A DNA stretch of 32,000 nucleotides, taken from Candidatus Hermodarchaeota archaeon (GTDB lineage: Archaea; Asgardarchaeota; Heimdallarchaeia; Hodarchaeales; Hodarchaeaceae). The position numbers were made by a program, and so were the translations under genes. The stretch is taken from positions 60,001 to 92,000 of the forward strand of contig JBHLKY010000002.1 in the NCBI GenBank assembly GCA_048886185.1, given 5' to 3'. Positions 11,094-29,090 of the stretch are shown here, piece after piece. How positions within the stretch are numbered: the first letter of the stretch is position 1; each line of letters opens with the position of its first letter. The notes below the pieces were generated by a model. It was not told where the DNA came from and ran no database searches. It saw only the letters and a list, made by a program, of their open reading frames with translations.

Positions 11094-12089
11094 TCACTTT
11101 TCCATAGCACTAACAACTTCTTGAGGTAAAAGTAACTCAAATTTGCAGACAGAATCCCCTTGAAGAACTGATTCAATCAACTTAACTTCCACAGGCTGAT
11201 CCAAGACCGCTTCCCAGAAGTTTTTATAGTATCCCCCACTACAATTACAGAAAATTGGATCGATAGGTTGTTCTTCCTCTAATAATCCCTCTCTAGCCCA
11301 AGGACAATGGCAATAGTAATATCGTTTTTTTCTTTCGTCTGTTTCATTAAGATATTGCTTTGTCATATATGGAATTTTTGTTATAATGACCTTATTTCCT
11401 TCTCGAACTCCTGCCTCCGTCATTCCTTTTTGACTCGTAACGTATTCAAGCACTTGCTCATCAATCTCCTGTGTGAAGAAAAGAGTTTGCTCCTCGTAAT
11501 GTTGTGTTAATGTATCGATAAAATCCTGCCGTTTTGTTCTTAAAAAATCATCAATATTCTCTGCTTTTAGATATTTCTGCCTTGCTGATTTGTAGGAGTC
11601 TGTATATTTGTCTCTAAGCCCATTTGAAAGGAATTCAGCACATTTATTTCTATTAACTTTTTCAAGAAATCTCTCAATCAATTGTTTAGTAATGGTTGGC
11701 TTCTTCGCTGGATGTAATCCTAAGGGGGGCACTTCTATATCACCAAAAACTTCATTCCTTATATCCTCACCAAATTCATCAATCAGACGGTTTGAAAAGT
11801 TCACCAAAACTTCCCCCCCATCAATAACTTCCATCGCAGCAATAATCAAGAGATTATTCTTTGTAAAGTATCCATATCGAAGAATATTGATATAATTATC
11901 GTATGAATTCGTATCATTCTTAATTAGATAAACTGAAAAACCTTGAAAATCGTCATATGTTGCATTGTCAATAGATTGATTATGAGGAAGAAAATTGTTA
12001 AACTCTTGGATGATATTGAGAGCATTTTTAATTTTTTCTGGGTCAAGTTTTCGTTCCTGTAAGTATCCTTTGAAACCTTCTAGATCCAT
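11094..12089 (-). CDS. Cys-rich protein with DUF6144-like/V4R-like C-terminal domain
   Basis: C-terminal YCHCPW...FCNCSGGY...VxLxESVLxGDxxCKF pattern resembling V4R-like metal-binding domains. The family name is from recall and was not searched. Confidence 0.55.
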   Translation of the reverse strand: MDLEGFKGYLQERKLDPEKIKNALNIIQEFNNFLPHNQSIDNATYDDFQGFSVYLIKNDTNSYDNYINILRYGYFTKNNLLIIAAMEVIDGGEVLVNFSNRLIDEFGEDIRNEVFGDIEVPPLGLHPAKKPTITKQLIERFLEKVNRNKCAEFLSNGLRDKYTDSYKSARQKYLKAENIDDFLRTKRQDFIDTLTQHYEEQTLFFTQEIDEQVLEYVTSQKGMTEAGVREGNKVIITKIPYMTKQYLNETDERKKRYYYCHCPWAREGLLEEEQPIDPIFCNCSGGYYKNFWEAVLDQPVEVKLIESVLQGDSVCKFELLLPQEVVSAMEK

Positions 12090-12227: not shown

Positions 12228-13613
12228 TTAGTAAATGAAGGGGATTCCAATATCCTCAAGTTCTTTCCGGGTTTTCTGATAAAGATTCAAATATTCAGGA
12301 GAAGGTTTGATCTTTCGGACATCATAGCATTCACGAAAGTCTTTCCCGAGAGGAGCTTCTTCAATATTCTCTTCATAGGTCTTCAAAAGAGTAAGTGTAA
12401 GCTCATTTGCATCTCCTCGAGAGATTTTCTCTATTGCCGCTCCGCATCCAACTTCAGCCGCCATTTTTGCTTCCATTGGAGTAGCATAATTCTTATGCCT
12501 ATTCTTTGCTACAGCCATTTCCCACAGATTTGCTCCGGAAACAACAGATACTAAACCATGAGTTGCTCCTTCTCTTAAAACCATCTCTGTACAGGGACCA
12601 GCAGCTGCAAATCCGTTTGACATCGATACAAAATTACTATTCCGAGATATGGCTTGATAAGTCGTGGAAATTACCCATAAGAGCTCTCGCATTGTATTGC
12701 AAGTGTGTTTTAAGTGGAAGGGAAAGTAATTCATGAAATGGGCTTGGTTAACAAGTAAACCCATTAAATGATAAGCAATACCTACAAGCGTGGTTCCCTC
12801 AGGGCCGCCTGCATATCCTCCAAGAATAGGTCCTGCAAGAGTGCCTACAAAACACCCATAAGTATGGAAATGAACCATCTTGTTTAAGAGAGAGTTATCT
12901 ATTTTGAGCTCTGTTATACTTGCTACGAAGCGTCCATCCGTTAATCGTTCTCCCCATTCAGAATTACTAGCAGCAATCTGTGCAGCATCTGATTCTGCAG
13001 TTCCAACACTTTTAAGGAAGATACCTGGGCGACCAACTCGTCTTGCAGACTCTCGGAACATCATAGCATGAGCAACAGCTCCTTTCACTTCCGAAGGAGA
13101 CCCAGAGCGAATGGGCATCCCCTCAATCTCATCAAGAATGGGGGCACAAACTCCATCAGCGAGAGGTTCTTGTAAGTACGCCATGGACATTGGAACGAAA
13201 ATATCCTCATCACATGTTATATCAGGTGAGAAAAGACAAAATGGTTTATTTGAATCCTCTATTTTTCTACTTGAGATTTCTTTGGAATCTCGGCCAAAAC
13301 CTAATGTAAACTTGCCAGGAAAGTTTCCAAGAGCCTCCTTTATCTCATCTTCGGTAAACAAAATCCTTCGATGAGTATCTGTACATAGAGTGCCAACCTC
13401 GAGGTATAAATCTAACGCAGCGTTCCATAGACTATCAGCTAACGTGTTATCATCTGGAACTGGTGTTGCAGGGTCAAAAGAAATGTCATATTCCTTGATG
13501 ACCCTCCTGAGTGCAGGAACTAAGAGTTTGAGGTCATAATCCTTCTCCAAACATACTGGCCCAGTTTCTGCTCTTTCCAACACTTCATTTATTCGCCAGG
13601 GAGGAGTAACCAT
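12228..13613 (-). CDS. mtmB: Monomethylamine methyltransferase (MtmB) family corrinoid methyltransferase, non-pyrrolysine form
   Basis: Full-length collinearity with Methanosarcina MtmB as I recall it (CTDTHR...TEDEI, GRPG, ELKID, PIxGGYAGGxE, AGPCTEM, MEA, GKxFxECYDV). No in-frame TAG; the Pyl position is Lys201 (AAA, 13013-13011). Confidence 0.92.
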   Translation of the reverse strand: MVTPPWRINEVLERAETGPVCLEKDYDLKLLVPALRRVIKEYDISFDPATPVPDDNTLADSLWNAALDLYLEVGTLCTDTHRRILFTEDEIKEALGNFPGKFTLGFGRDSKEISSRKIEDSNKPFCLFSPDITCDEDIFVPMSMAYLQEPLADGVCAPILDEIEGMPIRSGSPSEVKGAVAHAMMFRESARRVGRPGIFLKSVGTAESDAAQIAASNSEWGERLTDGRFVASITELKIDNSLLNKMVHFHTYGCFVGTLAGPILGGYAGGPEGTTLVGIAYHLMGLLVNQAHFMNYFPFHLKHTCNTMRELLWVISTTYQAISRNSNFVSMSNGFAAAGPCTEMVLREGATHGLVSVVSGANLWEMAVAKNRHKNYATPMEAKMAAEVGCGAAIEKISRGDANELTLTLLKTYEENIEEAPLGKDFRECYDVRKIKPSPEYLNLYQKTRKELEDIGIPFIY

Positions 13614-14276
13614 CTATCTCGCCCTTTTCTCGAGAAGATCCGCTGCTAGTTTCCCTGCTTGGACGGCAGTTTCAGCCCAACCATCGGCACCAATCTCTTC
13701 TTGCCACTGTACCGTAGTGGGGGCACCCCCGATAATCACTATATAGTCATCTCGTTTTCCCAGCGCTTCAAGCAGTTCAATGACTTCTTTCTGGGATACC
13801 ATTGTTGTAGTCATAAGCGCAGAGAGTGCTATTACATCAGCGTCTACTTCTCCAGCTTTTTCAATAAATTGCATAGAGGGAACATCCTTTCCTAAGTCAA
13901 ACACTTCAAAGCCTGAAACCTCGAGCATGATTTTCACGATGTTCTTACCAATCTCATGGATATCCCCATGGACGGTACCGATTACTACCTTCCCTTTCGA
14001 TTCGAGTCGCTCAGTAGTGGATTTCTTTATGTGTTCAGTTAATACCGAGGTAGCTGCCTGCATCGCTTCTGCAGCACCCATGAGCTCGGGAAGAAAAATA
14101 TCCATTTTATCAAATTGATCCCCTATTTGTTCCATTGTAGGACTCAATACCTCATCGATCACTTTTAAAGGATCCACCTGAGCATTTACGAGTTCTTGGG
14201 CTATTTCTTTAGCTTTTTCAGGCTCATACTCCTCTACTGATCGTTTTAAAGCTTCGAATAGACTCTCTATTGTCAT
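13614..14276 (-). CDS. mtmC: Methyltransferase cognate corrinoid protein (MtmC/MtbC/MttC family)
   Basis: N-terminal helical cap. Base-off/His-on B12 motif GTVHGDIHEIGK (DxHxxG), SALMTTT, IGGAP. Directly upstream of the mtmB homolog. Confidence 0.93.
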   Translation of the reverse strand: MTIESLFEALKRSVEEYEPEKAKEIAQELVNAQVDPLKVIDEVLSPTMEQIGDQFDKMDIFLPELMGAAEAMQAATSVLTEHIKKSTTERLESKGKVVIGTVHGDIHEIGKNIVKIMLEVSGFEVFDLGKDVPSMQFIEKAGEVDADVIALSALMTTTMVSQKEVIELLEALGKRDDYIVIIGGAPTTVQWQEEIGADGWAETAVQAGKLAADLLEKRAR

Positions 14277-15519: not shown

Positions 15520-15636
15520 TGACTAAAGATTACATTTGATCATTTAACTCAATGCAGATATGAAATATTTTATTTATTGATTGATCTAAGGAACCTAACT
15601 TTCTCGAAGAAATTTATGAATGAGGAAGGTTCTATA

Positions 15637-17661
15637 CTGGGAAAAGAAAAACTGAATAGTTTAATGGCTGGAATCGCATTAATAGGACTCCTTTGTACCA
15701 ATCCTCTTTCTACATGTTCACAAGTTATAATATCATCCAAATGGTCTTCAGAATTCCGTCCACATGGGGGATTTGTGGACAAAATCATGTTTCATGTGTA
15801 CACTGCGATCGAGACTCCTCTCGCGATGGCAGCGCTTCAAACGGGTGAGATCGACGCTTATGATGAACAAGTACAACAGAATTATCTAGCTGCAGTGGTA
15901 CGGGATGAGAATATTGAAGTAACATTTACACCAAGTGTAAGATATCAGGCATTGACATTGAATTGTGAACGATTTCCTACTAATATCACTGCTTTCCGTC
16001 GGGCGATGGCTTTTGGGTTTGATAAATACAGAGCGAATGTAGAGGTTATCGGTAGCGGAGTTGGACAACCTCAAGACAGTTACATTCCATTGATTATATC
16101 GGAATGGGAAGTGGAAAGTGCGCTCGCTGAACACTTCTATGAATCAGATTATATTTCTGGGAATAGATCACTCGAGAATGCGGGTTTTAAAAATTTGGAT
16201 ATTGATGGCTGGCGGGAGTATGACAAAAACAACAACGGTGTATGGGATCCTGGGATTGATTTAGACGATGATGAATATGTAAATGGAACTATCCTGCAAC
16301 TTTATGCTTTAGAAGGATCTGATCCTGCTATCAGAATGTGTGACATCATGGTGGATGGGCTTGAAGAGATGGGTGTCCGTGCGGAAACTGTAGTAATGGA
16401 TAATGATTTCATACTTGATGCTGTCTTCGCTGGAAATCATTGGTGTGTTTTTTGGATAGAAAGCTGTCCAGTGATTAATATTGCAAAAATCCTATACGAC
16501 CGCTTTAGAACTGGTGCCCAATGGAACAGAGAGCCGTACAACTATTATCACTATAGTAACAGCACGATTGATGCTATCCTTGATAATATGGTAGACGCGA
16601 CGAATATTGAAGATGTAAAGCAATATGCCTTGGATGCCAGCTTACTTTTAACGTTTGAGCAGCCCCAAATCGTTTACTTAAATTATGTAAATATTGGCGC
16701 TCATAGAAATGATGAGTTTGAAGGATTCTTCAAAGCTGCGGGATTAGGTGTCACCAGTGGTGAAAATTGGGCTGTAACAACAAAAATTCATCTGAAGGAG
16801 TCCCTTGGAGGGCCTTATGGCGGAATATTTGATTATTGTTTGTCAGGGGAGATGGGTACTTGGAACCCTTATTTGAAAAAAACGCAGTACGAAGCTACAG
16901 TCTTTCAGTACATCTATGAATACTTATGGAATTTCGACCCATTCACCTGGGATCCTATTCCTGGGTTAGCATACGACTGGGAAATTGAGCAGACGACTGC
17001 GAATGGAGACATCCGTGATGGCCAGAAATTCACCTTCTATTTATACCAGAACGAGACCTGGCATGATGGGGAACACTTCACTGCAGCTGATATTAACCAC
17101 TCTATTTACATGTGGAGAGACAGTCCATTCCATAGTCCCAATATGTGGGATATATATGAAACAGAACTCCCTGATGGGCCAGATGGGCACGTCATTGAAC
17201 TGTATGTTAACGAGACGGGGTACTTTGAGTGGGCGGATACCACACGATTCCTCATCACCCCTAAACACATCTGGGGAGAGGTGGAAAATGTCACCTCGTA
17301 TTCTCCAGAAATCAATCAGGTAATTGGAACGGGGCCATATATGTTACAAACATGGGTACCTGGAGAGTCTATTACTCTTGAACGGCATGAAGATTGGCGA
17401 TGGGATACTCGACATACTGGCAATGGCCACATTTTTTCTACCATAGAAGACGAAATCACTCTAATCCCACCAACAACTTCAGTTCCTACGACTAAAAACA
17501 CTTTCACTCCCAATTCTTCCTCGACACGCTCCTCCTACTCATCAATTTATTTGGTACCATCTTTTGACCTTATCCCTGTACTCCAGATGGTGGAACTTGG
17601 CACCATCCTGTTCTTTGTGATCACTGTAGTGATCATTATTCGACGAAACCAATTGAAATAA
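15637..17661 (+). CDS. ABC family-5 (OppA/DppA-like) substrate-binding protein 1, circularly permuted
   Basis: Motifs ALQxGxID, FRRAMAFGxD, DxDGWRE, WHDGxxFTAxD, GTGPY. Start revised from TTG 15577 to CTG 15637 (SD GAGGAAGGT + 6 nt; in-frame ATG 15616 is an alternative). C-terminal Ser/Thr linker + TM helix + RR. Confidence 0.88.
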   Translation: MGKEKLNSLMAGIALIGLLCTNPLSTCSQVIISSKWSSEFRPHGGFVDKIMFHVYTAIETPLAMAALQTGEIDAYDEQVQQNYLAAVVRDENIEVTFTPSVRYQALTLNCERFPTNITAFRRAMAFGFDKYRANVEVIGSGVGQPQDSYIPLIISEWEVESALAEHFYESDYISGNRSLENAGFKNLDIDGWREYDKNNNGVWDPGIDLDDDEYVNGTILQLYALEGSDPAIRMCDIMVDGLEEMGVRAETVVMDNDFILDAVFAGNHWCVFWIESCPVINIAKILYDRFRTGAQWNREPYNYYHYSNSTIDAILDNMVDATNIEDVKQYALDASLLLTFEQPQIVYLNYVNIGAHRNDEFEGFFKAAGLGVTSGENWAVTTKIHLKESLGGPYGGIFDYCLSGEMGTWNPYLKKTQYEATVFQYIYEYLWNFDPFTWDPIPGLAYDWEIEQTTANGDIRDGQKFTFYLYQNETWHDGEHFTAADINHSIYMWRDSPFHSPNMWDIYETELPDGPDGHVIELYVNETGYFEWADTTRFLITPKHIWGEVENVTSYSPEINQVIGTGPYMLQTWVPGESITLERHEDWRWDTRHTGNGHIFSTIEDEITLIPPTTSVPTTKNTFTPNSSSTRSSYSSIYLVPSFDLIPVLQMVELGTILFFVITVVIIIRRNQLK

Positions 17662-17720
17662 TTCCTTTTCAGATGGAATTTCCTACAGGTCTTAATTACG
17701 ACCCCGAAGTTGGAGAACTA

Positions 17721-17748
17721 CAATTGCGAGAATATTATACTTTATAAA
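17721..17748 (+). promoter_or_regulatory. Conserved promoter element CAATTGC about 20 nt upstream of TATA box TTTATAAA (SBP2)
   Basis: Same motif and spacing upstream of SBP3; degenerate copies upstream of SBP4 and SBP1. Confidence 0.55.
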
Positions 17749-17818
17749 GGGCAAACCCTAGGATACTAGAATTTTCATAGTTTGTTCATCAGGGACGTAT
17801 ATTGAGGAAGGATATATC

Positions 17819-19780
17819 CTGAAAATAGAGACCTTGAGCTGTTTTTTTATTGGATTTATCCTCTTAGGATTTTGCACCTCTAATACTGCTAATCAAACAC
17901 ACTTGGTTATTAAGAGCTCCAAGTGGGCCTCGGAGTTTCGCCCTTATGGGGGATATGTCGACGAGATAGAGTTTGTAATTTTCACAGAAACAGAAATCCC
18001 CCTTGCTATGTTAGCACTCCAAAACGGAGATATTGACGCATATGATGAACGTATATTACAAGATTATCTTGCAGCGCTCGTAAGGGATCAGAATATTGAT
18101 GTAACCTTCACTCCTAGTGTTCGTTATCGAGCACTCACCTTGAATTGTGAGAAATTCCCACTTAATATCACAGCATTCCGTCGAGCGATGGCTTTTGGGT
18201 TTGATAAATACCGAGCGAATGTAGAATGCATTGGAGGTGTTGGCCAACCTCAAGATGGTCACATCCCAATTAGCGCTACTGAATGGGAGATAGACAGTGA
18301 GGTCTCAAATCACTTCTATGAGGCCGATTTTGCCTCAGGAAACGCATCTCTGGAAAATGCTGGCTTTATCGATTTAGACGGTGATGGTTGGCGGGAATTT
18401 GATGCTGATGGTTCCAAAGATTGGTCTGTTGGGGACTTAGACCATGATGCATATGCTGATGGTGATATTATACAACTATATGCCAGTCTTGGATACGATC
18501 CACCGATTAGAGTCTGTAATATCATGGTTGATGGGCTTAGATCTATGGGTATAATGGCTGAAACATTAGTAGATTGGTTTGATTACATGAGTGAATTATG
18601 GTCTGGTAGAGGTTGGGCTCTTTGCTGGACAGAGGGCATTACTATCACTAATCCTTCACAATTGCTATATGACAATTTTCGAACTGATGCAAAATATAAT
18701 AGAGACCCGTATAGCTATTATCACTTCAGTAATGCCACTATTGATCAGGTTCTCGACCAAATGATAAATTCGACCTCCCTTGAAGATACTAAAAGCTATG
18801 CAAAGGAAGCTGCTTCATTACTGGCTTTTGAACAACCTCAGATTGTATGCTACAACGATGTCAATATTAACGCTTATCGAACAGACAAGTTTGAGGGATT
18901 CTTTGAGTTCAAAGGAATTGGTTCTTCGTCAGGAGATAATCCATATCTTATGCCTAAAGTATTCAGAAAGGAATCAGAAGGGGGGCCTTATGGGGGAACG
19001 TTCAAATATTGTTTATCGGGTAAGCTAAACACGCTTAATCCTTATTTATATCAAACTGATTATGATAGAACAGTCTTCCAGAACATCTATGAGACCCTGT
19101 GGAATATCGACCCATTCACTTGGGATCCCATTCCAGGGTTAGCTTATGATTGGGACATCGAACAAACAATTGCCAATGATGATATCCGTGATGGTCAGAA
19201 ATATACTTACTATCTGTATCAGAATGAAACCTGGCATGATGGAACACCATTCACAGCTCAAGACGTTAATGTCTCGATCCTTCAGTGGAGAAGCTCTCCC
19301 CGCAGTGGTCCTGAGATGAAAGACATTTACAAGATCGAAATACCAGATGATTACACCATTGTCATATATGTGAATGAGACTGGTTTCTTCGAGTTTGCTG
19401 ATACTCAAGTTCCATATATAATACCGACTCACATCTATGATCCAAGTCTTGTTGGAAATATCACAGTTTTCAATCCGACACTTGATGATATGATTGGTAC
19501 TGGTCCGTATAAGCTCGCTGCACATGTCTCTGGTGAATATATCAGCCTGGAACACAATACCAACTGGCGTTGGGATAACAGGACTAGAGTCCCGTTAACC
19601 CCTGATGAGTATTATTGGATTTCCTCACAAAGCGAAACGGAAACGTCTTCTTCCCGCACGTCTACCTACTCAGATCACTCGTTTGACCTGCTTCCTGTCA
19701 TCCAGATACTAGAATTAGGCACTATTGTGCTTTTTTTGGTAACCCTGGTAATCATAATCCGACGACATCAACTGAACTAA
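17819..19780 (+). CDS. ABC family-5 substrate-binding protein 2, circularly permuted
   Basis: Same motifs as SBP1. Start revised to CTG 17819 (GAGGAAGGA + 6 nt); TTG 17834 is five codons downstream and removes the basic n-region. Confidence 0.88.
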   Translation: MKIETLSCFFIGFILLGFCTSNTANQTHLVIKSSKWASEFRPYGGYVDEIEFVIFTETEIPLAMLALQNGDIDAYDERILQDYLAALVRDQNIDVTFTPSVRYRALTLNCEKFPLNITAFRRAMAFGFDKYRANVECIGGVGQPQDGHIPISATEWEIDSEVSNHFYEADFASGNASLENAGFIDLDGDGWREFDADGSKDWSVGDLDHDAYADGDIIQLYASLGYDPPIRVCNIMVDGLRSMGIMAETLVDWFDYMSELWSGRGWALCWTEGITITNPSQLLYDNFRTDAKYNRDPYSYYHFSNATIDQVLDQMINSTSLEDTKSYAKEAASLLAFEQPQIVCYNDVNINAYRTDKFEGFFEFKGIGSSSGDNPYLMPKVFRKESEGGPYGGTFKYCLSGKLNTLNPYLYQTDYDRTVFQNIYETLWNIDPFTWDPIPGLAYDWDIEQTIANDDIRDGQKYTYYLYQNETWHDGTPFTAQDVNVSILQWRSSPRSGPEMKDIYKIEIPDDYTIVIYVNETGFFEFADTQVPYIIPTHIYDPSLVGNITVFNPTLDDMIGTGPYKLAAHVSGEYISLEHNTNWRWDNRTRVPLTPDEYYWISSQSETETSSSRTSTYSDHSFDLLPVIQILELGTIVLFLVTLVIIIRRHQLN

Positions 19781-19851
19781 TTCACTTTCAGAAGCATTAA
19801 AAACAGATTCAAATTACTTAAAAGCTTATATTAAGGAAAAAGGCAAAATAA

Positions 19852-19879
19852 CAATTGCAGAAAAATAAAACTTAATTAA
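19852..19879 (+). promoter_or_regulatory. Conserved promoter element CAATTGC 20 nt upstream of TATA-like TTAATTAA (SBP3)
   Basis: Identical spacing to the SBP2 promoter. Confidence 0.55.
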
Positions 19880-19953
19880 GCGAACGAGCTCTAGATCACT
19901 AGAACTTCAGCTTTTGTTACTAAAAGCGGAAATGAAAAGAGGAAGGACTTGTT

Positions 19954-21966
19954 CTGAAAAAAGGGGTATTAAATTATCTTATTATAGGATTTATCCTCCT
20001 AGCATTATGTACCCCAAACACCGTTAGAACAACAACTTTAATTTTAAAGAGCTCTAAGTGGTCCTCGGAGTTCCGCCCTTTTGGCGGATATGTGGACACA
20101 GTCCAGTTCTTAATTTATCCACTAACCGAATATCCTCTACCGATGCTAGCTTTGCAATTGGGAGATATCGATGCATTTGACGAACAGGTTCGGCAAGATT
20201 ACCTTGCTGGACTTCATAGGGACCCAAATATCGAACAAACTTTTACTCCGAGTTTAAGATATCGGGCACTGACCCTAAATTGTGCTAAATTCCCCACCAA
20301 TATCACAGCTTTTCGTCGTGCGATGGCGTTCGGGTTTGATAAAACCCGAGCGAATATCGAATGCATTGGAGGTGTTGGCCAACCTCAAGACAGTCATATT
20401 CCACTAATATCAACAGAGTGGGAAGTTGAAAGTGAACTCCCTGTGCACTTTTATGAGGCAGACTTTGTTGCTGGAAATGCATCACTTGAGAATGCTGGCT
20501 TCACCGACCTAGATGACGATGGTTGGCGTGAATACGATGCAGATGGCTCAGGTACATGGACTGCTGGCGACTTGGACCATACTTCATACACTGATGGTGG
20601 TATCATGGAGCTATATGCAACAGCAGGGTATGACCCTGCTATTAGAGCCTGTGATATCATGGTAGATGGGTTAGAGTCGATGGGTATCCGGTCAACTGTT
20701 GTTGAATTTGATTTACAACAATGGTTTGACTGTTTCTGCTTGCCCGTTCCTAGTGTTACTTGTTGGACAGAAGAAATTTCTATTGCCAATCCCTCAAGAA
20801 TCCTTTATGATAATTTTCATTCAACAGGGGGGAAGTATAACATAGATCCGTACAATTATTATCATTTTAGAAATAATACCATTAATTTTGCTTTGGATCA
20901 AATGATTACTTCCATAACCCTCAATGAAACCAAATACTATGCTCGGGAGGCTGCTAAATTATTAGCTTTTGAACAACCACAGATTGTCGTGTATAATGAC
21001 GTAATTATCAACGCTTATCGCACAGACAGATTTACAGGATTTTTTGAATTCAAAGGACTCGGAACTTCCTCAGGAGAAAATCCATATGTCGCCACAAAGG
21101 TACATCTCAAGGAATCATTAGGGGGACCTTACGGTGGATCCTTCAAATACTGTTTGTCGGGAGAGATGAATACATGGAATCCCTATCAACAAAAAACAAA
21201 ATACGAATCAACAGTCTTTCAATACATCTATGAGACTCTGTGGAATCTTGATCCCCTCACTTGGGATCCCATTCCAGGACTAGCGTATGATTGGAAAATT
21301 GAACAGACCTCCGCAAGTGGAGACATCCGTGAAGGCCAGAAATTCACCTTTTATTTATATCAGGATGAAACTTGGCATGATGGCGAGTCATTCACTGCAG
21401 CTGACGTGAACCACTCCATTTACATGTGGAGAGACAGCCCATATCATACTCCTAAAATGTGGGATATTTACAAGACGGAGCTTCCAGAAGGACCAGATGG
21501 ACACGTCATTGAAATCTATGTAAACGAAACGGGGTATTTTGAGTGGGTGGACACCACGCAATTCTATATCACCCCCAAGCATATCTGGCAAGAAGTAGAG
21601 AATGTCACCGCTTATAATCCAGCTATCAATGAGGTGATTGGAACGGGACCTTACAGGTTGGCCGATTGGGTACCTGGAGAATCAATCACTCTTGAACGAC
21701 ATGAAGACTGGCGATGGGACATTCGTGAAGTAAATTCTTACATTAATGGAGACACTTTTCCTTCAACTACACAACATCCAATAATAACCAGTGATGGTCA
21801 TTATTGGACTTCCTCACAAAGCGAAATGACAACCATTACTTATAACAATACCTACTTAGATTTCTCCATTAACCTGCTATCTGTCTTCCAGATTTTAGAG
21901 CTAGTTACTGTTGCGTTGTTCGTGGTCACTATAGTGATCATTATCCGCCGATACCAAGTGAATTAA
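19954..21966 (+). CDS. ABC family-5 substrate-binding protein 3, circularly permuted
   Basis: The frame is open upstream of the track start (GTG 20092) to a stop at 19933 and encodes a signal peptide collinear with SBP6. The only plausible initiator there is CTG 19954 (GAGGAAGGA + 6 nt). Confidence 0.88.
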   Translation: MKKGVLNYLIIGFILLALCTPNTVRTTTLILKSSKWSSEFRPFGGYVDTVQFLIYPLTEYPLPMLALQLGDIDAFDEQVRQDYLAGLHRDPNIEQTFTPSLRYRALTLNCAKFPTNITAFRRAMAFGFDKTRANIECIGGVGQPQDSHIPLISTEWEVESELPVHFYEADFVAGNASLENAGFTDLDDDGWREYDADGSGTWTAGDLDHTSYTDGGIMELYATAGYDPAIRACDIMVDGLESMGIRSTVVEFDLQQWFDCFCLPVPSVTCWTEEISIANPSRILYDNFHSTGGKYNIDPYNYYHFRNNTINFALDQMITSITLNETKYYAREAAKLLAFEQPQIVVYNDVIINAYRTDRFTGFFEFKGLGTSSGENPYVATKVHLKESLGGPYGGSFKYCLSGEMNTWNPYQQKTKYESTVFQYIYETLWNLDPLTWDPIPGLAYDWKIEQTSASGDIREGQKFTFYLYQDETWHDGESFTAADVNHSIYMWRDSPYHTPKMWDIYKTELPEGPDGHVIEIYVNETGYFEWVDTTQFYITPKHIWQEVENVTAYNPAINEVIGTGPYRLADWVPGESITLERHEDWRWDIREVNSYINGDTFPSTTQHPIITSDGHYWTSSQSEMTTITYNNTYLDFSINLLSVFQILELVTVALFVVTIVIIIRRYQVN

Positions 21967-22024
21967 TTCTTTTTTAATAGAATAATTACATTTCTCAATC
22001 TTTAGATGAATTATGAAAAAGCAT

Positions 22025-22054
22025 CATTTGCGGGAATAGGATGTTTTTTATAAT
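22025..22054 (+). promoter_or_regulatory. CATTTGC + TATA-like TTTATAAT upstream of the SBP4-5-6 unit
   Basis: Variant of the motif seen upstream of SBP2 and SBP3; spacing about 20-22 nt. Confidence 0.45.
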
Positions 22055-22124
22055 TTATTTACTCTTGAATAACCGATCTTTCTTTTTTATTTCGTGGTGA
22101 TTGTGAAAAGAGGAAGGAAATATC

Positions 22125-24080
22125 TCGCAAAAAAGAAAATTACTCACATTAATAATTGTAATTACTCTCCTAGGATTATTTTACCCTAATACCGTTAAAT
22201 CCACATCGTTAGGTAGTCGGAGCCCCAAATGGTCATCGGAATTTCGCCCATATGGAGGTTATGTTGATGAAATCAAGTTTATGATCTATCCTGATGAGGA
22301 AATCCCTCGCGCGATGTTAGCGCTACAAAATGGCGATATTGATGCCTATGATGAGCGCGTTCCGCAAGACTACTTAGCAGCTCTGGTGAGAGATCCAAAT
22401 ATTGAAGTAAGTTTTACACCAAGTGTCCGATACCGAGCTCTCACGCTAAACAGTGACCGATTTCCCTTAAACATCTCTGCGTTTCGTCGGGCTATGGCCT
22501 TCGGGTATGATAAATATCGTGCGAACTTGGAATGCATTGGAGGCGCGGGGTGGCCTCAAGATAGTTACATTCCGATAACTATCACTGAATGGGAAGTCGA
22601 GAGCGAGATGAGTGATCACTTCTATGAAGCAGATTATGTATTAGGCAACAGATCACTTGAAAACGCTGGATTCAAAGATATAGACGGGGATGGGTGGCGG
22701 GAATATGACAAAAACAATAATGGTGTGTGGGATACAGGCATTGACCTGAATGATGATGAATATGCCGATGGTGGGATAATAATACTCTACACAGTTCCTG
22801 GATATGACCCTGCCATCAAGGCGTGTGACATTATGGCAGATGGATTAGAAGCGATGGGGATTCGTAGTGAAGTTTTTGAACCTATTCTTATGCCTTATCC
22901 CTCCGATCATTGGAATCTTCATGTCAATTGTTGGACTGAAGGTATTCCTCTGATTAATCCATCTAAATGTTTGTATGATAACTTTAGAACAGGAGCGATT
23001 TTAAATACTGATCCTTACAACTACTATCACTTCAGTAACAGCACCATTGACGCAGTTTTCGACCAGATGATGGAAGCTACTAGCCTAGAGGACGTAAAGA
23101 CACATGCAAAAGAGGTTAATAGGTTATTAACCTTCGAACAACCGCAGATTGTTGTCTATAATGACGTGAATATTGGTGCTTACAGGAATGACAGGTGTGA
23201 AGGTTGGTTCGAGTTTACTGGATTAGGGCCGACTACGGGTGGTTATACCAAAAACAATCCGTACTGTGCTACCAAATTACATCTGAAGGAATCTTTGGGA
23301 GGACCATTTGGTGGAACGTTAAAGAACTGTTTATCGGGAGAAATGAATACGCGGAATCCCTATTTACTGCAAACAAGATACGATTCAACGGTCTTTCAGT
23401 ACATTTATGAGACCCTGTGGAATATCGACCCATATACCTGGGATCCTATTCCAGGCTTAGCGTATGATTGGGGGATTGAACAGACCACTGCGGGTGGAGA
23501 CATCCGAGATGGCCAAAAGGTCACATTTTACCTGTATGAAAACGAGACATGGCATGATGGAGAACCCTTTACTGCAGCTGACGTAAACCACTCCCTATAT
23601 CTGTGGAAGAGCTCTCCCCGAAGTGGGGTAGAGATGGCAGATATCTATAAAGTTGAGTTACCTAACGGACCCGATGGTCATACTATCGAAATATTTGTGA
23701 ATAAGACTGGATACTTCGAGTGGGCAGACACCACACACTTTTACATCACCCCCGAGCACATCTGGCGTGAGGTGACCAATGTGTCCGCTTTCGTTCCAAC
23801 TAACGATCAGATTGTTGGTACGGGGCCCTATAAGTGGAACGAACATGTCCCTGGAGAGTATATCAGGCTAGTTCGCGATGAGAAGTGGCGGTGGGATATC
23901 CGTGATGTTGGTTATTTGATTGAAAGCACTTATTCTACTCATTCCTCCACGAATGTACCTGCAACTGAAAGCTCTGCCCCAACAAGCACTCCAGGATTTA
24001 CTTCTGTAACCATACTAGTATTCGTTGTTGTTCTCCTTGTCAAGCGTTCAAAAAGAGAAAGAAAGAAGGATTACATATGA
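22125..24080 (+). CDS. ABC family-5 substrate-binding protein 4, circularly permuted; start codon anomalous
   Basis: The frame is open upstream of ATG 22281 to a stop at 22104 and encodes a signal peptide (QKRKLLTLIIVITLLGLFYPN) collinear with SBP6. The codon at the expected start is TCG. TPGF + TM + basic tail. Confidence 0.82.
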   Translation, partial: SQKRKLLTLIIVITLLGLFYPNTVKSTSLGSRSPKWSSEFRPYGGYVDEIKFMIYPDEEIPRAMLALQNGDIDAYDERVPQDYLAALVRDPNIEVSFTPSVRYRALTLNSDRFPLNISAFRRAMAFGYDKYRANLECIGGAGWPQDSYIPITITEWEVESEMSDHFYEADYVLGNRSLENAGFKDIDGDGWREYDKNNNGVWDTGIDLNDDEYADGGIIILYTVPGYDPAIKACDIMADGLEAMGIRSEVFEPILMPYPSDHWNLHVNCWTEGIPLINPSKCLYDNFRTGAILNTDPYNYYHFSNSTIDAVFDQMMEATSLEDVKTHAKEVNRLLTFEQPQIVVYNDVNIGAYRNDRCEGWFEFTGLGPTTGGYTKNNPYCATKLHLKESLGGPFGGTLKNCLSGEMNTRNPYLLQTRYDSTVFQYIYETLWNIDPYTWDPIPGLAYDWGIEQTTAGGDIRDGQKVTFYLYENETWHDGEPFTAADVNHSLYLWKSSPRSGVEMADIYKVELPNGPDGHTIEIFVNKTGYFEWADTTHFYITPEHIWREVTNVSAFVPTNDQIVGTGPYKWNEHVPGEYIRLVRDEKWRWDIRDVGYLIESTYSTHSSTNVPATESSAPTSTPGFTSVTILVFVVVLLVKRSKRERKKDYI

Positions 24081-26056
24081 GGAAAACACATATGTATCTT
24101 TTAATGATCGGAATCGTACTTTTAGGCATTTTATGTCCCATTCCTCAGTCTAAATCAGCGATAGAGGAAAGAGTTCCCACATGGTCATCAGATTTCCGTC
24201 CATATGGAGGGTATGTCGATGAAGTCAAGTTTATAATCTATCCTGATGAGGACATCCCTCTGGCGATATTAGCACTACAAAAAGGGGACATTGATGCCTA
24301 TGATGAGAGTGTTCCACAAGATTACTTAGCAGCTCTTGTGAATGATCCGAACATTGAAGTGACTTTTACACCAAGTGTCAGATACAGAGTCCTCAAGTTA
24401 AATTGTGAGCTTTTCCCCTTAAACATCACCGCATTTCGTCGGGCTTTGGCCTTCGGGTATGATAAATATCGTGCGAACTTGGAATGCATTGGAGGCGCGG
24501 GGTGGCCTCAAGATAGTTACATTCCGATAACTATCACTGAATGGGAAGTCGAGAGCGAGATGAGTGATCACTTCTATGAGGCAGATTATGTGTTAGGCAA
24601 CAGATCACTTAAAAATGCTGGTTTCAAAGACTTAGATGGAGACGGGTGGCGAGAATATGACAAAAACAATAATAGTGTTTGGGATCCAGGGGTTGATTTA
24701 GACGATGATACTTATGCTCAAAGTCATTATACCAATGATATGGGCATCTTGGATATGTTTGTTACAGCAGGATATGACCCTGCTATCAAGGCGTGTGAAA
24801 TAATGGTAGATACTCTTGCAGAAATGGGGATTCGTTCGAAAATCATTGAAATAGACCCGCGTGCTCTCGATTCCTATCCTTCTGATCTTTATCTAAACGG
24901 TGAGGTAATTTGCCAGACTGATGGTATTGCTTTTATTAATACACCTAAATTTCTGTATAATAATTTTGCTACTGGAGGATGGCTTAATACAGATCCCTAC
25001 AATCATTATCATTTTAATAATGACACGATCTCTGCTATTCTTGAAGATATGGTCGCTGCCAGTGATATCAATGAAGTTAAGCAATATGCTCGTGAAGCAA
25101 GCTCACTATTGGCCTTTGAGCAACCACAAATTGTGGTTTACAACGATGTTGACATCAATGCTTACCGTAATGACAGATTTGATGGCTGGTTTGAATTTAG
25201 GGGTGCTGGGGTGTCCAGTGGTGACAACTGGGCCTGTGCAACCAAGGTACACCTCAAAGAGTCCCATGTTGGGCCTTATGGTGGAAGCTTCTACTATTGT
25301 TTATCTGATAACATGGGAACCTTAAATCCCTATTACCAAAAAACGGGTTACGAAGATACTGTTTTTCAGTACATCTATGAAAAACTATGGAATATCGATC
25401 CAATTACCTGGGATCCTATTCCAGGATTAGCGTACAATTGGGAGATTGAGCAGACCTCTGCAGGTGGAGACAATCAAGATGGCCAAAAGTTCACGTTCTA
25501 CCTGTATGAGAACGAGACATGGCATGATGGGGAACCCTTTACTGCAGCCGACGTGAATCACTCCATCTACCTGTGGAGGAGCTCTCCTCGAAGTAAAGTA
25601 GAAATGGCAGATATCTATAAAGTTGAGTTGCCCGAGGGGCCAGAAGGCCATATTATCGAAATTTTTGTCAATAAGACAGGATATTTTAAGTGGGCGGATA
25701 CCACGCGCTTTTACATTACCCCTGAACATATCTGGCGCGATGTGACAAATATATCAGCATTCATTCCGACTGACGATCAAACGATTGGCACGGGGCCTTA
25801 TATGTGGAACGAACATGTCCCTGGAGAGTACATCAGTCTTCTTCGTCACGAGGATTGGCGGTGGGATATCCGTGACAAAGATAATCATTTTATAAGTCAG
25901 TTCGGATCCACTCAATGCTCGACATCAATTACGATATCTCAGAGCTCTATCCCAACAACCAGTCCAGGGTTCACTGCTTTAACGTCACTAGCGTTATTAG
26001 TAGGTGCTCTCTTTGTTAAACTGTCGAAAAGAAAAGGAAAGGAGAATTACCCATGA
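24077..26056 (+). CDS. ABC family-5 substrate-binding protein 5, circularly permuted
   Basis: ATG overlaps the SBP4 stop (ATGA). SD AAGAAGGA + 6 nt. Signal peptide; SPGF + TM + basic tail. Confidence 0.9.
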   Translation: MRKTHMYLLMIGIVLLGILCPIPQSKSAIEERVPTWSSDFRPYGGYVDEVKFIIYPDEDIPLAILALQKGDIDAYDESVPQDYLAALVNDPNIEVTFTPSVRYRVLKLNCELFPLNITAFRRALAFGYDKYRANLECIGGAGWPQDSYIPITITEWEVESEMSDHFYEADYVLGNRSLKNAGFKDLDGDGWREYDKNNNSVWDPGVDLDDDTYAQSHYTNDMGILDMFVTAGYDPAIKACEIMVDTLAEMGIRSKIIEIDPRALDSYPSDLYLNGEVICQTDGIAFINTPKFLYNNFATGGWLNTDPYNHYHFNNDTISAILEDMVAASDINEVKQYAREASSLLAFEQPQIVVYNDVDINAYRNDRFDGWFEFRGAGVSSGDNWACATKVHLKESHVGPYGGSFYYCLSDNMGTLNPYYQKTGYEDTVFQYIYEKLWNIDPITWDPIPGLAYNWEIEQTSAGGDNQDGQKFTFYLYENETWHDGEPFTAADVNHSIYLWRSSPRSKVEMADIYKVELPEGPEGHIIEIFVNKTGYFKWADTTRFYITPEHIWRDVTNISAFIPTDDQTIGTGPYMWNEHVPGEYISLLRHEDWRWDIRDKDNHFISQFGSTQCSTSITISQSSIPTTSPGFTALTSLALLVGALFVKLSKRKGKENYP

Positions 26057-28035
26057 AAAAAGGAAGTTTATTAAGCTTATTAATAGGACTTACCCTTCTA
26101 GGACTTTTTTACCCGAATACTGTTCAAACAACACCCTCAATTATAAGGAGTCCCAAATGGTCATCGGAATTTCGCCCCTATCCTGGCGGATACGTGGATG
26201 AGATCGAGTTTATGATCTATCCTGATGAGGATATCCCTCTGGCGATATTAGCACTACAAAATGGGGACATTGATGTGTATGATGAGCGGGTTCCGCAAGA
26301 TTACTTAGCAGGTCTGGTGAGTGATCCGAATATTGAGGTGACCTTTACGCCAAGTGTCCGATATAGAGCCCTCACGCTAAATTGTGACCGATTCCCCTTA
26401 AACATCACCGCGTTCCGTCGAGCTATGGCCTTCGGATATGATAAATCCCGAGCAAACAGGGAATGCATTGGAGGTGCGGGGTGGCCTCAAGATAGTTACA
26501 TTCCGATAACTATCTCTGAATGGGAAGTCGAAAGCGAGATGAGTGATCACTTCTATGAGGCAGATTATGTGTTAGGCAACAGATCACTTGAAAACGCTGG
26601 GTTCAAAGATTTAGACGGAGATGGGTGGCGGGAATACGACGCTAATGGTAATGATGCCTGGGATGTTGGTGTTGACTTAGATGATGATGAATACGCTGAT
26701 ATGACGCCTGGAACCTCATCCATAATAGAAATGTATGCTTTAGCTGCTTATGATCCATCTATCAAAGCCATTGATATCATGGTAGATGGATTAGAAGAAA
26801 TGGGAGTTCGATGTTACGCTTATCCTCCTGATTTCTTACCCACCCCACCAGATCCCATGGCCTTTGATGTCCTGTGCTGGAATGAGGGCATTCCATTAAC
26901 CAATCCATCCAAATGCCTGTATGAAAACTTCAGAACGGATGCTAAGTATAATGGAGGCCTCTATAACTACTATCACTTCAGTAACAGCACAATTGACGCA
27001 GTTTTTGATCAGATGATAGAAGCTACCACTTTAGAGGATGTAAAGACATATGCGAAAGAGGTCAATAGATTTTTAACCTTCGAACAACCGCAGATTGTTG
27101 TCTATAATGACGTGAATATTGGTACTCACCGGAATGACAGATTTGATGGTTGGTTTGAGTTTACGGGGTTGGGACCGACTACAGGTGGTTACATTCAGAA
27201 TAATCCATACTGTGCTACCAAATTACATCTGAAGGAATCTTTGGGAGGACCATTTGGTGGAACATTGTACTACTGTTTATCTGGCACGATAGATACTCTA
27301 AATCCTTATTTACAAAAATGGGATAGAGAAGAAACTGTCTTTCAGTATATCTATGATCAACTATGGAGTATCGATCCATATACATGGGATCCCATTCCAG
27401 GATTAGCGTATGATTGGGAGATTGAACAGACCACTGCGGGTGGAGACATCCGAGATGGCCAAAAGTTCACGTTCTACTTGTATGAAAACGAGACATGGCA
27501 TGATGGGGAACCCTTTACTGCAGCCGACGTAAACCACTCCCTATATCTGTGGAAGAGCTCTCCCCGAAGTGGGATAGAGATGGCGGAAATCTACAAAGTT
27601 GAGTTACCCGATGGATCCGAAGGCCATACTATCGAAATATATGTCAACAAGACAGGATATTTCGAGTGGGCAGACACCACCTGGTTTTACATCACCCCCG
27701 AGCATATCTGGCGTGAGGTGACCAATGTATCAGCATTCATCCCAATTAACAATCAGATTATTGGCACGGGGCCTTATAAATGGGAAAATCATGTCCCTGG
27801 AGAGTATATCAGGCTAGTTCGCGGTGAGAATTGGCGATGGGATATCCGTGATGGTGATTGTACACAAATTAAAAACACTTATTCTACTCAGCCCTCCACG
27901 AGTATACCTTCAACTGAAAGCTCCGCCCCAACAAGCACAACAACAGGCACTCCAGGATTTACTTCTGTTACCATACTAGTATTCGCTGTGGCTCTCCTTG
28001 TCAAGTGTTCAAAAAGAGAAGGAAAGAAGGATTAG
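26053..28035 (+). CDS. ABC family-5 substrate-binding protein 6, circularly permuted
   Basis: ATG overlaps the SBP5 stop (ATGA). Signal peptide; TPGF + TM + basic tail. Confidence 0.9.
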   Translation: MKKGSLLSLLIGLTLLGLFYPNTVQTTPSIIRSPKWSSEFRPYPGGYVDEIEFMIYPDEDIPLAILALQNGDIDVYDERVPQDYLAGLVSDPNIEVTFTPSVRYRALTLNCDRFPLNITAFRRAMAFGYDKSRANRECIGGAGWPQDSYIPITISEWEVESEMSDHFYEADYVLGNRSLENAGFKDLDGDGWREYDANGNDAWDVGVDLDDDEYADMTPGTSSIIEMYALAAYDPSIKAIDIMVDGLEEMGVRCYAYPPDFLPTPPDPMAFDVLCWNEGIPLTNPSKCLYENFRTDAKYNGGLYNYYHFSNSTIDAVFDQMIEATTLEDVKTYAKEVNRFLTFEQPQIVVYNDVNIGTHRNDRFDGWFEFTGLGPTTGGYIQNNPYCATKLHLKESLGGPFGGTLYYCLSGTIDTLNPYLQKWDREETVFQYIYDQLWSIDPYTWDPIPGLAYDWEIEQTTAGGDIRDGQKFTFYLYENETWHDGEPFTAADVNHSLYLWKSSPRSGIEMAEIYKVELPDGSEGHTIEIYVNKTGYFEWADTTWFYITPEHIWREVTNVSAFIPINNQIIGTGPYKWENHVPGEYIRLVRGENWRWDIRDGDCTQIKNTYSTQPSTSIPSTESSAPTSTTTGTPGFTSVTILVFAVALLVKCSKREGKKD

Positions 28036-28100: not shown

Positions 28101-29090
28101 CTATAGGTGATTTGAGATTGAGAGAAAATTATCTGGGCCTAAGCTTGTGGCTAACATGACTCTATTGATATCCATATGTTCAGTCCAATCACTATGCTTG
28201 AGCCAATAAGCATTTATTTCATCTATTAATGCCCAAGACTCCTCTAAGAAGGCCATTTTTTTAGCAGCCTGTAATCCAATGGCTAACCCGAGTTCTCTAA
28301 ATGCTAAAACATGGGAGAGGCGACAATACTTAAGACCTTCTTGAGCAGCAATCATCATTCTTCTTCTTTTATCAGAGTTAAGACCCATCTGTTCCAACCT
28401 ATAAGCATCAAACAATAACCCTCCAATACCTAAAGGATCAGTTGTAACCAGATTGAGTTGTTGAATCATTTTTTCCAAACTTGATAACACTGCTCCTAAG
28501 TCTGCATCAATGACTGTCTGTAATTCTTTAAAGGTAATATACCCATCAACAGGATCATGTTGACCCATCGACGGGACGAGAGGATAAGAAAGGTCAATAC
28601 TCATTTTCCAGAACATCCGATTACTACTGATGAAGAGTGTTGACGCTTTTGCTAGATCTAGAGCCCAAGTAAGGTATTTTTCCTCTTTCATTACGTGATA
28701 AACTTTAATTAAAGCATGAATCCACTTTGTGAGATAATGGAAATATTGACCGTCACGATCCCATTCCAGGTGTGAATTAAAGGTTTCATAGGGTTTTCTC
28801 TCTGGCAAGGGTTTTCCGATTCTCAACCCATTTTTTGTGGGATGATCCTTGGTTCCCAACCACCCTGACCGTTCATCATCATCTCTATGTTTGCCTAATG
28901 TTTTGTGAACTTGGTCAACTAATTGTATTGCTAATTCTTTGAACTTATTCTCTCCAGTCATTTGGTAGAATCCCAAAAAATTACAAACTGCAAAACTATC
29001 AGTCCATAGATATCTTCTTGGAGGTTTTTTAGATGTTAATCCGGTATCGTCTGAAAATTTTAACATGAAATTTATGGCTTTTTCTGACAT
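28101..29090 (-). CDS. Conserved hypothetical protein (RYLWTD...DGQYFHYLTKW family), possibly a six-hairpin (alpha/alpha)6 fold
   Basis: 329 aa ORF with distinctive RYLWTDSFAV, GLRIGK and DGQYFHYLTKWIHAL blocks, helical and aromatic-rich. The fold is inferred. Confidence 0.6.
   Translation of the reverse strand: MSEKAINFMLKFSDDTGLTSKKPPRRYLWTDSFAVCNFLGFYQMTGENKFKELAIQLVDQVHKTLGKHRDDDERSGWLGTKDHPTKNGLRIGKPLPERKPYETFNSHLEWDRDGQYFHYLTKWIHALIKVYHVMKEEKYLTWALDLAKASTLFISSNRMFWKMSIDLSYPLVPSMGQHDPVDGYITFKELQTVIDADLGAVLSSLEKMIQQLNLVTTDPLGIGGLLFDAYRLEQMGLNSDKRRRMMIAAQEGLKYCRLSHVLAFRELGLAIGLQAAKKMAFLEESWALIDEINAYWLKHSDWTEHMDINRVMLATSLGPDNFLSISNHL

Follow-up and report, generated by a model that had tools for sequence, protein, structure and literature searches.

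The 32,000-nucleotide stretch of contig JBHLKY010000002.1 analysed here (positions 60,001 to 92,000 of the forward strand; hereafter the window) comes from a Candidatus Hermodarchaeota archaeon and carries six plus-strand open reading frames (ORFs) at 15577-28035, all of which are genes for family-5 solute-binding proteins (SBPs). We show that the products of these six genes are complete SBPs of family 5 (Cluster C, OppA/DppA/NikA-type) and exact circular permutants, as an earlier note on this DNA had claimed. Canonical SBPs have the order I-IIa-III-IIb, whereas the permuted proteins have the order IIa-III-IIb, linker, I, with the old termini fused by a KExxGGPxGG sequence. After a signal peptide, the chain starts near canonical residue 190-200 and covers Domains IIa, III and IIb as far as the old C-terminus. 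About 8 Gly/Pro-rich residues then lead into the canonical N-terminal Domain I, followed by a serine/threonine (S/T)-rich stalk and a C-terminal membrane anchor. The permuted form is a large archaeal family that has apparently not been described. The source genome is 4.84 Mb in size and 96% complete, and the window corresponds to C2:60001-92000.

Profile and motif order is reversed in all six proteins

The SBP_bac_5 profile (PF00496) matched the six proteins with scores of 118.7-140.2 bits, the gathering score being 32.4. The earlier note had expected two matches in reversed order, and these were found in each of the six. The stronger of the two stretches corresponds to profile positions 2-143/156 and lies in the C-terminal third of the protein. 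With NCBIfam models, the N-terminal part matched positions ~240-396 of Opp4A and the C-terminal part matched positions ~35-220 of SapA/NikA. No NCBIfam equivalog cut-off was reached among Opp4A, SapA, NikA, DppA, GsiB, OppA and CntA, the best score being 74.5 bits against cut-offs of 393-1005. BLASTP comparison with a canonical relative, P0118, aligned residues 402-588 of SBP6 with P0118 57-234 (E 2e-19) and residues 48-383 with P0118 247-562 (E 4e-14). Searches of canonical proteins with phmmer also gave the swapped order, with significant E-values.

As an internal control, we used a profile of 623 positions made from the 8 canonical family-5 SBPs of this same genome. This profile gave a single collinear full-length match in 8/8 canonical SBPs and two reversed matches in 10/10 permuted paralogs (the six in the window and four elsewhere), with the break at 239/247 of 623. 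No segment of the own-genome profile was covered twice in the permuted proteins.

The motifs told the same story. In 6/6 ORFs the second canonical half comes first (GGYVDEIxF ... EQPQIV) and the first half comes last (NP ... WRWD), the order in which they had been noted. The linker KES.GGP[YF]GG occurs in all six proteins; in SBP1 it spans nucleotides 16795-16824, which enclose the stretch 16813-16824 noted before, and the family consensus of this junction is KExxGGPxGG. The motif RP[YFH](P)GG at the new N-terminus was likewise present in 6/6. Each protein begins with a hydrophobic N-terminal signal, continues with the N-module, the linker and the C-module, and finishes with an S/T-rich stalk and a hydrophobic tail at the C-terminus. 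The features of the array, all on the plus strand, are as follows.

15637..17661, +, SBP1, permuted family-5 SBP; likely start CTG 15637 (alternatives ATG 15616, TTG 15577); tail of the SFDLIPV...IIIRR type, a C-terminal transmembrane tail after the S/T-rich stalk
17819..19780, +, SBP2, permuted family-5 SBP; likely start CTG 17819 (alternative TTG 17834); SBP1-type tail
19954..21966, +, SBP3, permuted family-5 SBP; frame open from 19936, likely start CTG 19954; SBP1-type tail
22122..24080, +, SBP4, permuted family-5 SBP; frame open from 22107, start uncertain (ATC 22122); PGF-type tail
24077..26056, +, SBP5, permuted family-5 SBP; ATG overlaps the SBP4 stop codon; PGF-type tail
26053..28035, +, SBP6, permuted family-5 SBP, the protein chosen for modelling; ATG overlaps the SBP5 stop codon; PGF-type tail
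26173..27231, +, SBP6 N-module, amino acids 41-393, equal to canonical Domains IIa-III-IIb with both hinge strands included
27232..27261, +, SBP6 junction KESLGGPFGG, where the old C-terminus is joined to the old N-terminus
27262..27843, +, SBP6 C-module, amino acids 404-597, equal to canonical Domain I and ending at WRWD
27844..28032, +, SBP6 S/T-rich stalk and PGF motif, then a hydrophobic helix with a basic end; serves as C-terminal anchor or as sorting signal
16795-16824, 18968-18997, 21109-21138, 23286-23315 and 25256-25285, +, KES.GGP[YF]GG junctions of SBP1 to SBP5
15622..15629, +, GAGGAAGG, Shine-Dalgarno-like, 7 nucleotides upstream of the SBP1 CTG
17804-17811, 19939-19946 and 22110-22117, +, recurrences of GAGGAAGG upstream of SBP2 to SBP4

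The permuted family also has near-invariant N-x-S/T sequons at N117, N311 and N479 in SBP6 numbering (P.NIT.FRRA, SN.TID and ENETWHDG), and each of the six SBPs contains 7-10 sequons. This pattern suggests that N-glycosylation of the permuted surface proteins may be conserved.

Predicted structure and location of the cut

The full-length AlphaFold model of SBP6 was confident, with a predicted local distance difference test (pLDDT) score of 86.4 and a predicted template modelling (pTM) score of 0.81. Foldseek searches with this model returned Cluster C SBPs only, with ~310-365 columns aligned and a target template modelling (TM) score of 0.42-0.52. In VIA-align, model residues 37-395 corresponded to residues 204-507 of DppA (1dpp), 160-494 of NikZ (4oet) and 240-564 of EppA (6wm7), with Z ~23-25. 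SBP6 residues 396-600, folded separately, gave a pLDDT of 91.8, and this C-module alone matched NikZ 1-188, NikA 4-190 and OppA 6-216 (Z 17-20, root-mean-square deviation 1.9-2.9 A). Because the N-module covers the canonical chain from ~160-204 to its end and the C-module covers ~1-190, the two together account for the entire canonical chain, with its two parts exchanged. This order was read from the aligned ranges and from the C-module folded alone, in place of the permutation-aware superposition (CE-CP) that had been proposed. The canonical last and first residues are separated by 3-8 residues, which form the KES.GGP[YF]GG junction of about 8 Gly/Pro-rich residues.

In the ESM Atlas, archaeal relatives matched the SBP6 model over its full length (residues 33-616, TM 0.72) and bacterial canonical clusters matched residues 23-396 only (TM 0.44-0.45). 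A single collinear full-length match to a canonical SBP, by sequence profile or by structure, was not found with Pfam, Foldseek, VIA-align or the own-genome profile. The models show the predicted bilobed Cluster C fold with its extra domain and two-strand hinge (pTM 0.81; Z ~25 for the N-module and 17-20 for the C-module).

The domain boundaries of EppA are 27-256 for Domain I, 257-302 for IIa, 303-530 for III and 531-563 for IIb, and its hinge strands are 295-302 and 531-538 (PMC7312458). The new N-terminus maps to EppA ~240, near canonical residue 190-200, so that the moved block is essentially Domain I and both hinge strands lie in one module.

The anchor leaves the same lobe as in canonical proteins

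The earlier note had also suggested that the permutation tethers the opposite lobe to the membrane. This part of its proposal did not hold up against the EppA boundaries, by which Domain I is the block that was moved and the N-module retains the two hinge strands. The anchor exits Domain I, which belongs to the same lobe (I+II) as the canonical C-terminal anchor, and the idea of an opposite lobe is therefore not supported. C-terminal hydrophobic anchors are also present on all 8 canonical family-5 SBPs of the genome, and thus permutation is not needed for C-terminal tethering. We had considered the permutation as an adaptation to C-terminal anchoring, and this idea is weakened by the same 8/8 canonical proteins.

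The tails fall into two classes. Those of SBP1-3 (17407-17661, 19577-19780 and 21721-21966) have a conserved SFDL(I/L)PV.Q..ELGT...IIIRR helix and no PGF, and those of SBP4-6 (23898-24080, 25868-26056 and 27844-28035) have PGF, a helix and a K/R-rich end, the PGF-like motif having been called by eye in SBP4-6 and not in SBP1-3. The Heimdall-CTERM model (NCBIfam NF045529) matched the tails of SBP1, 2, 4 and 6 weakly, at 14-18 bits against a cut-off of 24. Two weak matches to archaeosortase (TIGR04125) were found in the genome, at 24-30 bits against a cut-off of 75.

The permuted order is not an artefact or a tandem remnant

Tandem paralogs that are 55-80% identical, in an array within which short-read contigs break, could in principle have been mis-assembled, or their gene boundaries misread with half of one gene attached to half of its neighbor, so as to create a reversed order. 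However, every ORF has its own stop codons, signal peptide and C-terminal anchor. The window DNA was found in four sediment metagenome runs, all from one study, and independent contigs from the four samples were identical; one of them, 4,781 bases long, covers SBP1 completely with zero differences in the four samples. Since these independent contigs agree, a chimera is ruled out. The same order also occurs at single-copy loci of many other genomes, the closed chromosome CP070695.1 included. We regard an artefact as refuted for practical purposes.

The reversed order might alternatively come from a partly degraded tandem fusion, in which the fold is present about 1.5 times and part of the chain is a non-functional remnant, and not from a clean permutation. 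Multi-module proteins do exist in the family: P0129 has the order permuted-canonical-canonical-permuted, and P0142 has two permuted modules. In contrast, the mature length of the window proteins, about 560 residues, is that of one fold, and each profile segment is covered at most once. Moreover, the N-module ends at the canonical last residue and the C-module begins at the canonical first residues, with the 3-8 residues of the junction between them, and both modules are confidently modelled and under purifying selection. Such a remnant is very improbable. The pairwise identity of the six proteins is 55-80%, with synonymous divergence (dS) of 0.59 or more and a ratio of nonsynonymous to synonymous divergence (dN/dS) of 0.08-0.25 in pairs with estimable dS, which identifies the six as duplicates that are old and have been kept by purifying selection. 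They form three sub-lineages on the tree, each with orthologs in other metagenome-assembled genomes (MAGs).

Family size, range and origin

The note had asked for a survey of taxonomic range, which revealed a real subfamily in several Asgard lineages and in Bathyarchaeia. A common break, which we call type A, was found in 213/255 proteins retrieved by two database searches, and permuted proteins occurred in 106/400 genomes of the Asgard phylum, a genome being counted if it had a near full-length collinear type A match. Of 41 loci from species-representative genomes, 38, from Heimdall-, Hod-, Prometh- and Thorarchaeota MAGs, had a full-length permuted ORF with the type A break; two others (L021 and L033) are partial, and one Desulfurococcales locus (L040) is canonical. 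We had taken this last match as a possible extension of the range and rejected it on account of its canonical order. The spread among Asgard genomes is patchy: 10/21 genomes of the organism's own family, 17/19 of f12 and 74/89 of f31-f33 together had type A matches, and none was found in families f20 (0/135) and f19 (0/14). The Bathyarchaeia-labelled clusters P0116 and P0117, together with two Thermoproteota/Bathyarchaeota clusters of the Atlas, have the permuted order. Up to 10 paralogs occur per genome, the number found in this one.

We also considered whether the most abundant, N-glycosylated family-5 SBP of cultured P. syntrophicum, DSAG12_03090 (PMC11284389), is a type A member. It is probably canonical, since a collinear profile match (2-367), presumably to this protein, lies at 3.43 Mb of the presumed P. 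syntrophicum genome, the position expected for that locus tag, and f19 gave 0/14.

A maximum-likelihood tree was built after in-silico re-ordering of the permuted sequences. The type A trait changes once on this tree, with 100% support for a core of 51 sequences, which agrees with a single origin of the type A family. The permutation is probably the result of a tandem duplication whose copies fused and were later trimmed at their ends. Several giant proteins carry type A modules. P0129, a metagenome protein of 4,308 residues, has type A, two canonical and type A modules in one chain together with Big_7/PKD repeats, and it is a possible duplication-fusion intermediate. P0142, P0152 and P0187 are further giants of this kind, P0142 having two type A modules and P0152 (Thorarchaeota) having a type A module fused to a Peptidase_S8 subtilase.

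Function and transport link

Taken jointly, the results are probably best explained by permuted family-5 SBPs that act as Venus-flytrap receptors for an Opp-type ATP-binding cassette (ABC) importer, a function that we infer. Ligand-induced Venus-flytrap closure would be expected because the permuted proteins retain the two lobes as well as the two hinge strands. The ligand would then be handed to an Opp/Dpp-type ABC translocator, the sole one linked to this family in the genome being C4:179030-185871. At that locus, genes for two ATPases (ABC_tran+oligo_HPY) and for one OppC-like and one OppB-like permease adjoin a permuted paralog (C4:187229-189181), and the same arrangement of importer and paralog occurs in a Heimdallarchaeote (L008) and a Hodarchaeote (L020). 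At 6/41 of the related loci, ABC genes are at most 8 kb away. The six proteins of the window would be orphan, alternative receptors sharing the C4 translocator. Peptides are the best guess for the ligand, as hinted by the Thorarchaeota protein that fuses a permuted module to a subtilase. Prediction of a complex between SBP6 residues 40-600 and the C4 OppB-like permease gave 0.59, 0.00 and 0.00 in its runs, which is evidence neither way.

Several observations weigh against this reading. The window has no permease or ATPase gene, nor is there one in the 12 kb around 9/10 genome paralogs, and the majority of related loci likewise consist of orphan genes or tandem arrays. Unlike classical transporter components, some of the permuted proteins form part of giant surface proteins of the Big/PKD kind or carry a fused protease. 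The fold itself is a predicted model whose permuted match was read module by module, the basal branch uniting the permuted family has an SH-aLRT support of 68% only, and SBP3 and SBP4 are without a standard start codon.

The gene arrangement could point instead to surface-displayed modules for capture, adhesion or sensing, which would use the SBP fold without ligand transfer to an ABC translocator. The scarcity of adjacent ABC genes around the genome paralogs and most related loci favors such a role, as do the commonness of tandem arrays and the N-terminal position of type A modules in Big/PKD-repeat proteins of 2,400-4,300 residues, or their fusion to a subtilase; in addition, one Bathyarchaeota Atlas cluster has Dockerin_1 in 14% of its members. 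On the other hand, the arrangement with a complete Opp-type importer is conserved in three genomes, and the single-domain proteins described here share their signal-plus-anchor layout with the canonical, transporter-linked SBPs of the genome. Orphan SBP genes sharing one translocator are also ordinary in bacteria and archaea. We consider the surface modules unlikely, and prefer the receptors for an Opp-type importer.

A second permutation in the same genome

Outside the window, two family-5 SBPs of the genome, at C2:227806-229596 (L043) and C10:60024-62210, are circularly permuted in another way, which we call type B. Here Pfam positions 282-363 precede 2-282, and the break is at ~385-389 of 623 in the own-genome profile, within Domain III. 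The last element of the chain before its PGF tail is the '...LLDEAGY' helix of Domain III. The C2 copy is the first gene of a complete operon with the order SBP-ATPase-ATPase-permease-permease. The same break is common to P0169 and P0203, and high-scoring partial profile matches (2-28x) suggest that type B is widespread in other Asgard genomes. On the tree, type B shows two changes and is not grouped with type A.

Types A and B are alike in being circular permutants of family-5 SBPs in the same organism, with a signal and a PGF-type anchor, but the break lies inside Domain III in type B and at the Domain I boundary in type A. A wider proposal would be that in Asgard archaea and Bathyarchaeia the OppA fold was cut anew on two or more independent occasions (A and B), shifting the point at which the C-terminal lipid or transmembrane anchor exits, and that type A modules are free-standing surface capture units (in arrays, Big/PKD giants and protease fusions), partly or wholly without an ABC translocator. 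We judge this proposal unlikely on present grounds. If it were true, these proteins would be a new class of archaeal surface receptor, beyond a topological variant.

Start codons and neighboring genes

Exactly 7 nucleotides after the Shine-Dalgarno-like GAGGAAGG, SBP1-3 have CTG; SBP4 has TCG at this place, with ATC just ahead of the TCG. No ATG, GTG or TTG was found ahead of the signal peptides of SBP3 and SBP4. Together with the conserved spacing between GAGGAAGG and CTG, this suggests that SBP1-3 initiate at CTG and leaves the start of SBP4 doubtful.

The neighbors of the array in the window are archaeal and are not transport genes. They include an MtmB-like methyltransferase with a corrinoid protein, an HTH_10 regulator, a 2,320-residue Big-domain protein, an EamA transporter and a radical SAM enzyme. 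In the region 12228-14276 (minus strand), the MtmB-family gene encodes 461 residues with a full-length Pfam match (E 1.6e-101) and lies directly downstream of the gene for the B12-binding corrinoid protein. It has no in-frame stop at the position of the pyrrolysine codon of methanogen MtmB, and the two genes may represent an Asgard methyltransferase pair that works without pyrrolysine. The 2,320-residue protein (2447-9409, plus strand) has Big_13, Big_3_2, Big_7 and PKD repeats, with weak ThuA, DUF4159 and IFT52-GIFT (GATase1-like) matches, and judging from these domains is probably a giant surface protein. Two long ORFs have no Pfam match or sub-threshold matches only, namely 3-2171 (minus strand, 723 residues, running off the window end) and 28101-29090 (minus strand, 329 residues). 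A further ORF at 11094-12089 (minus strand, 331 residues) has a weak DUF6144 match.

Relation to known binding proteins

The family-5 SBPs belong to the best-studied of all binding proteins, known from the uptake of peptides, nickel, opines and oligosaccharides and from the design of biosensors. The note's author was not aware of a description of permuted members, and we found none either in the full-text literature (mostly outside subscription journals), Pfam, NCBIfam or the PDB. Neither Pfam nor NCBIfam has a model dedicated to the permuted form, and sequence and fold searches of the PDB found no solved structure with the permuted chain order. Because profile-based pipelines see half a domain, abundant Asgard surface proteins receive partial domain matches and generic names. 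With 10 paralogs in this genome, the family is among the larger surface-protein expansions in some Asgard lineages, and it therefore bears on archaeal feeding. The permuted family by itself opens no long-standing question. As a natural, widespread and evidently viable permutant, it marks where the fold tolerates new termini and offers a natural test of the effect of chain connectivity on hinge motion and docking.

The permuted proteins share with the canonical Cluster C SBPs (OppA, DppA, NikA, NikZ and EppA; PF00496) their sequence family, all structural segments and the predicted two lobes with a two-strand hinge. The layout of archaeal signal, S/T stalk and C-terminal anchor is also alike, and one permuted paralog shares the OppBCDF-type linkage. 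They differ in having their termini near canonical residue 190-200, an anchor that leaves from the end of Domain I, and genes that are mostly orphan or in arrays.

The nearest precedent is a permuted glucose-binding protein of Cluster B, TpMglB-2 (Tp0684), which keeps ligand binding and closure and for which, with its relatives, a 'Cluster Bc' has been proposed (PMC4990184). Like the permuted family-5 SBPs, it is a natural circular permutant that is membrane-tethered and forms its own clade. TpMglB-2 belongs to Cluster B and to another sequence family, has a three-segment hinge and is bacterial, whereas the family-5 permutants belong to Cluster C and are archaeal; no Cluster B (MglB-like) match was found for the permuted proteins, all of whose sequence and structure matches were to Cluster C. 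In TpMglB-2, three strands of one lobe were moved and a fourth crossover was created. In the family-5 permutants, by comparison, a whole domain of 190-200 residues was moved, and no new inter-lobe crossover was needed.

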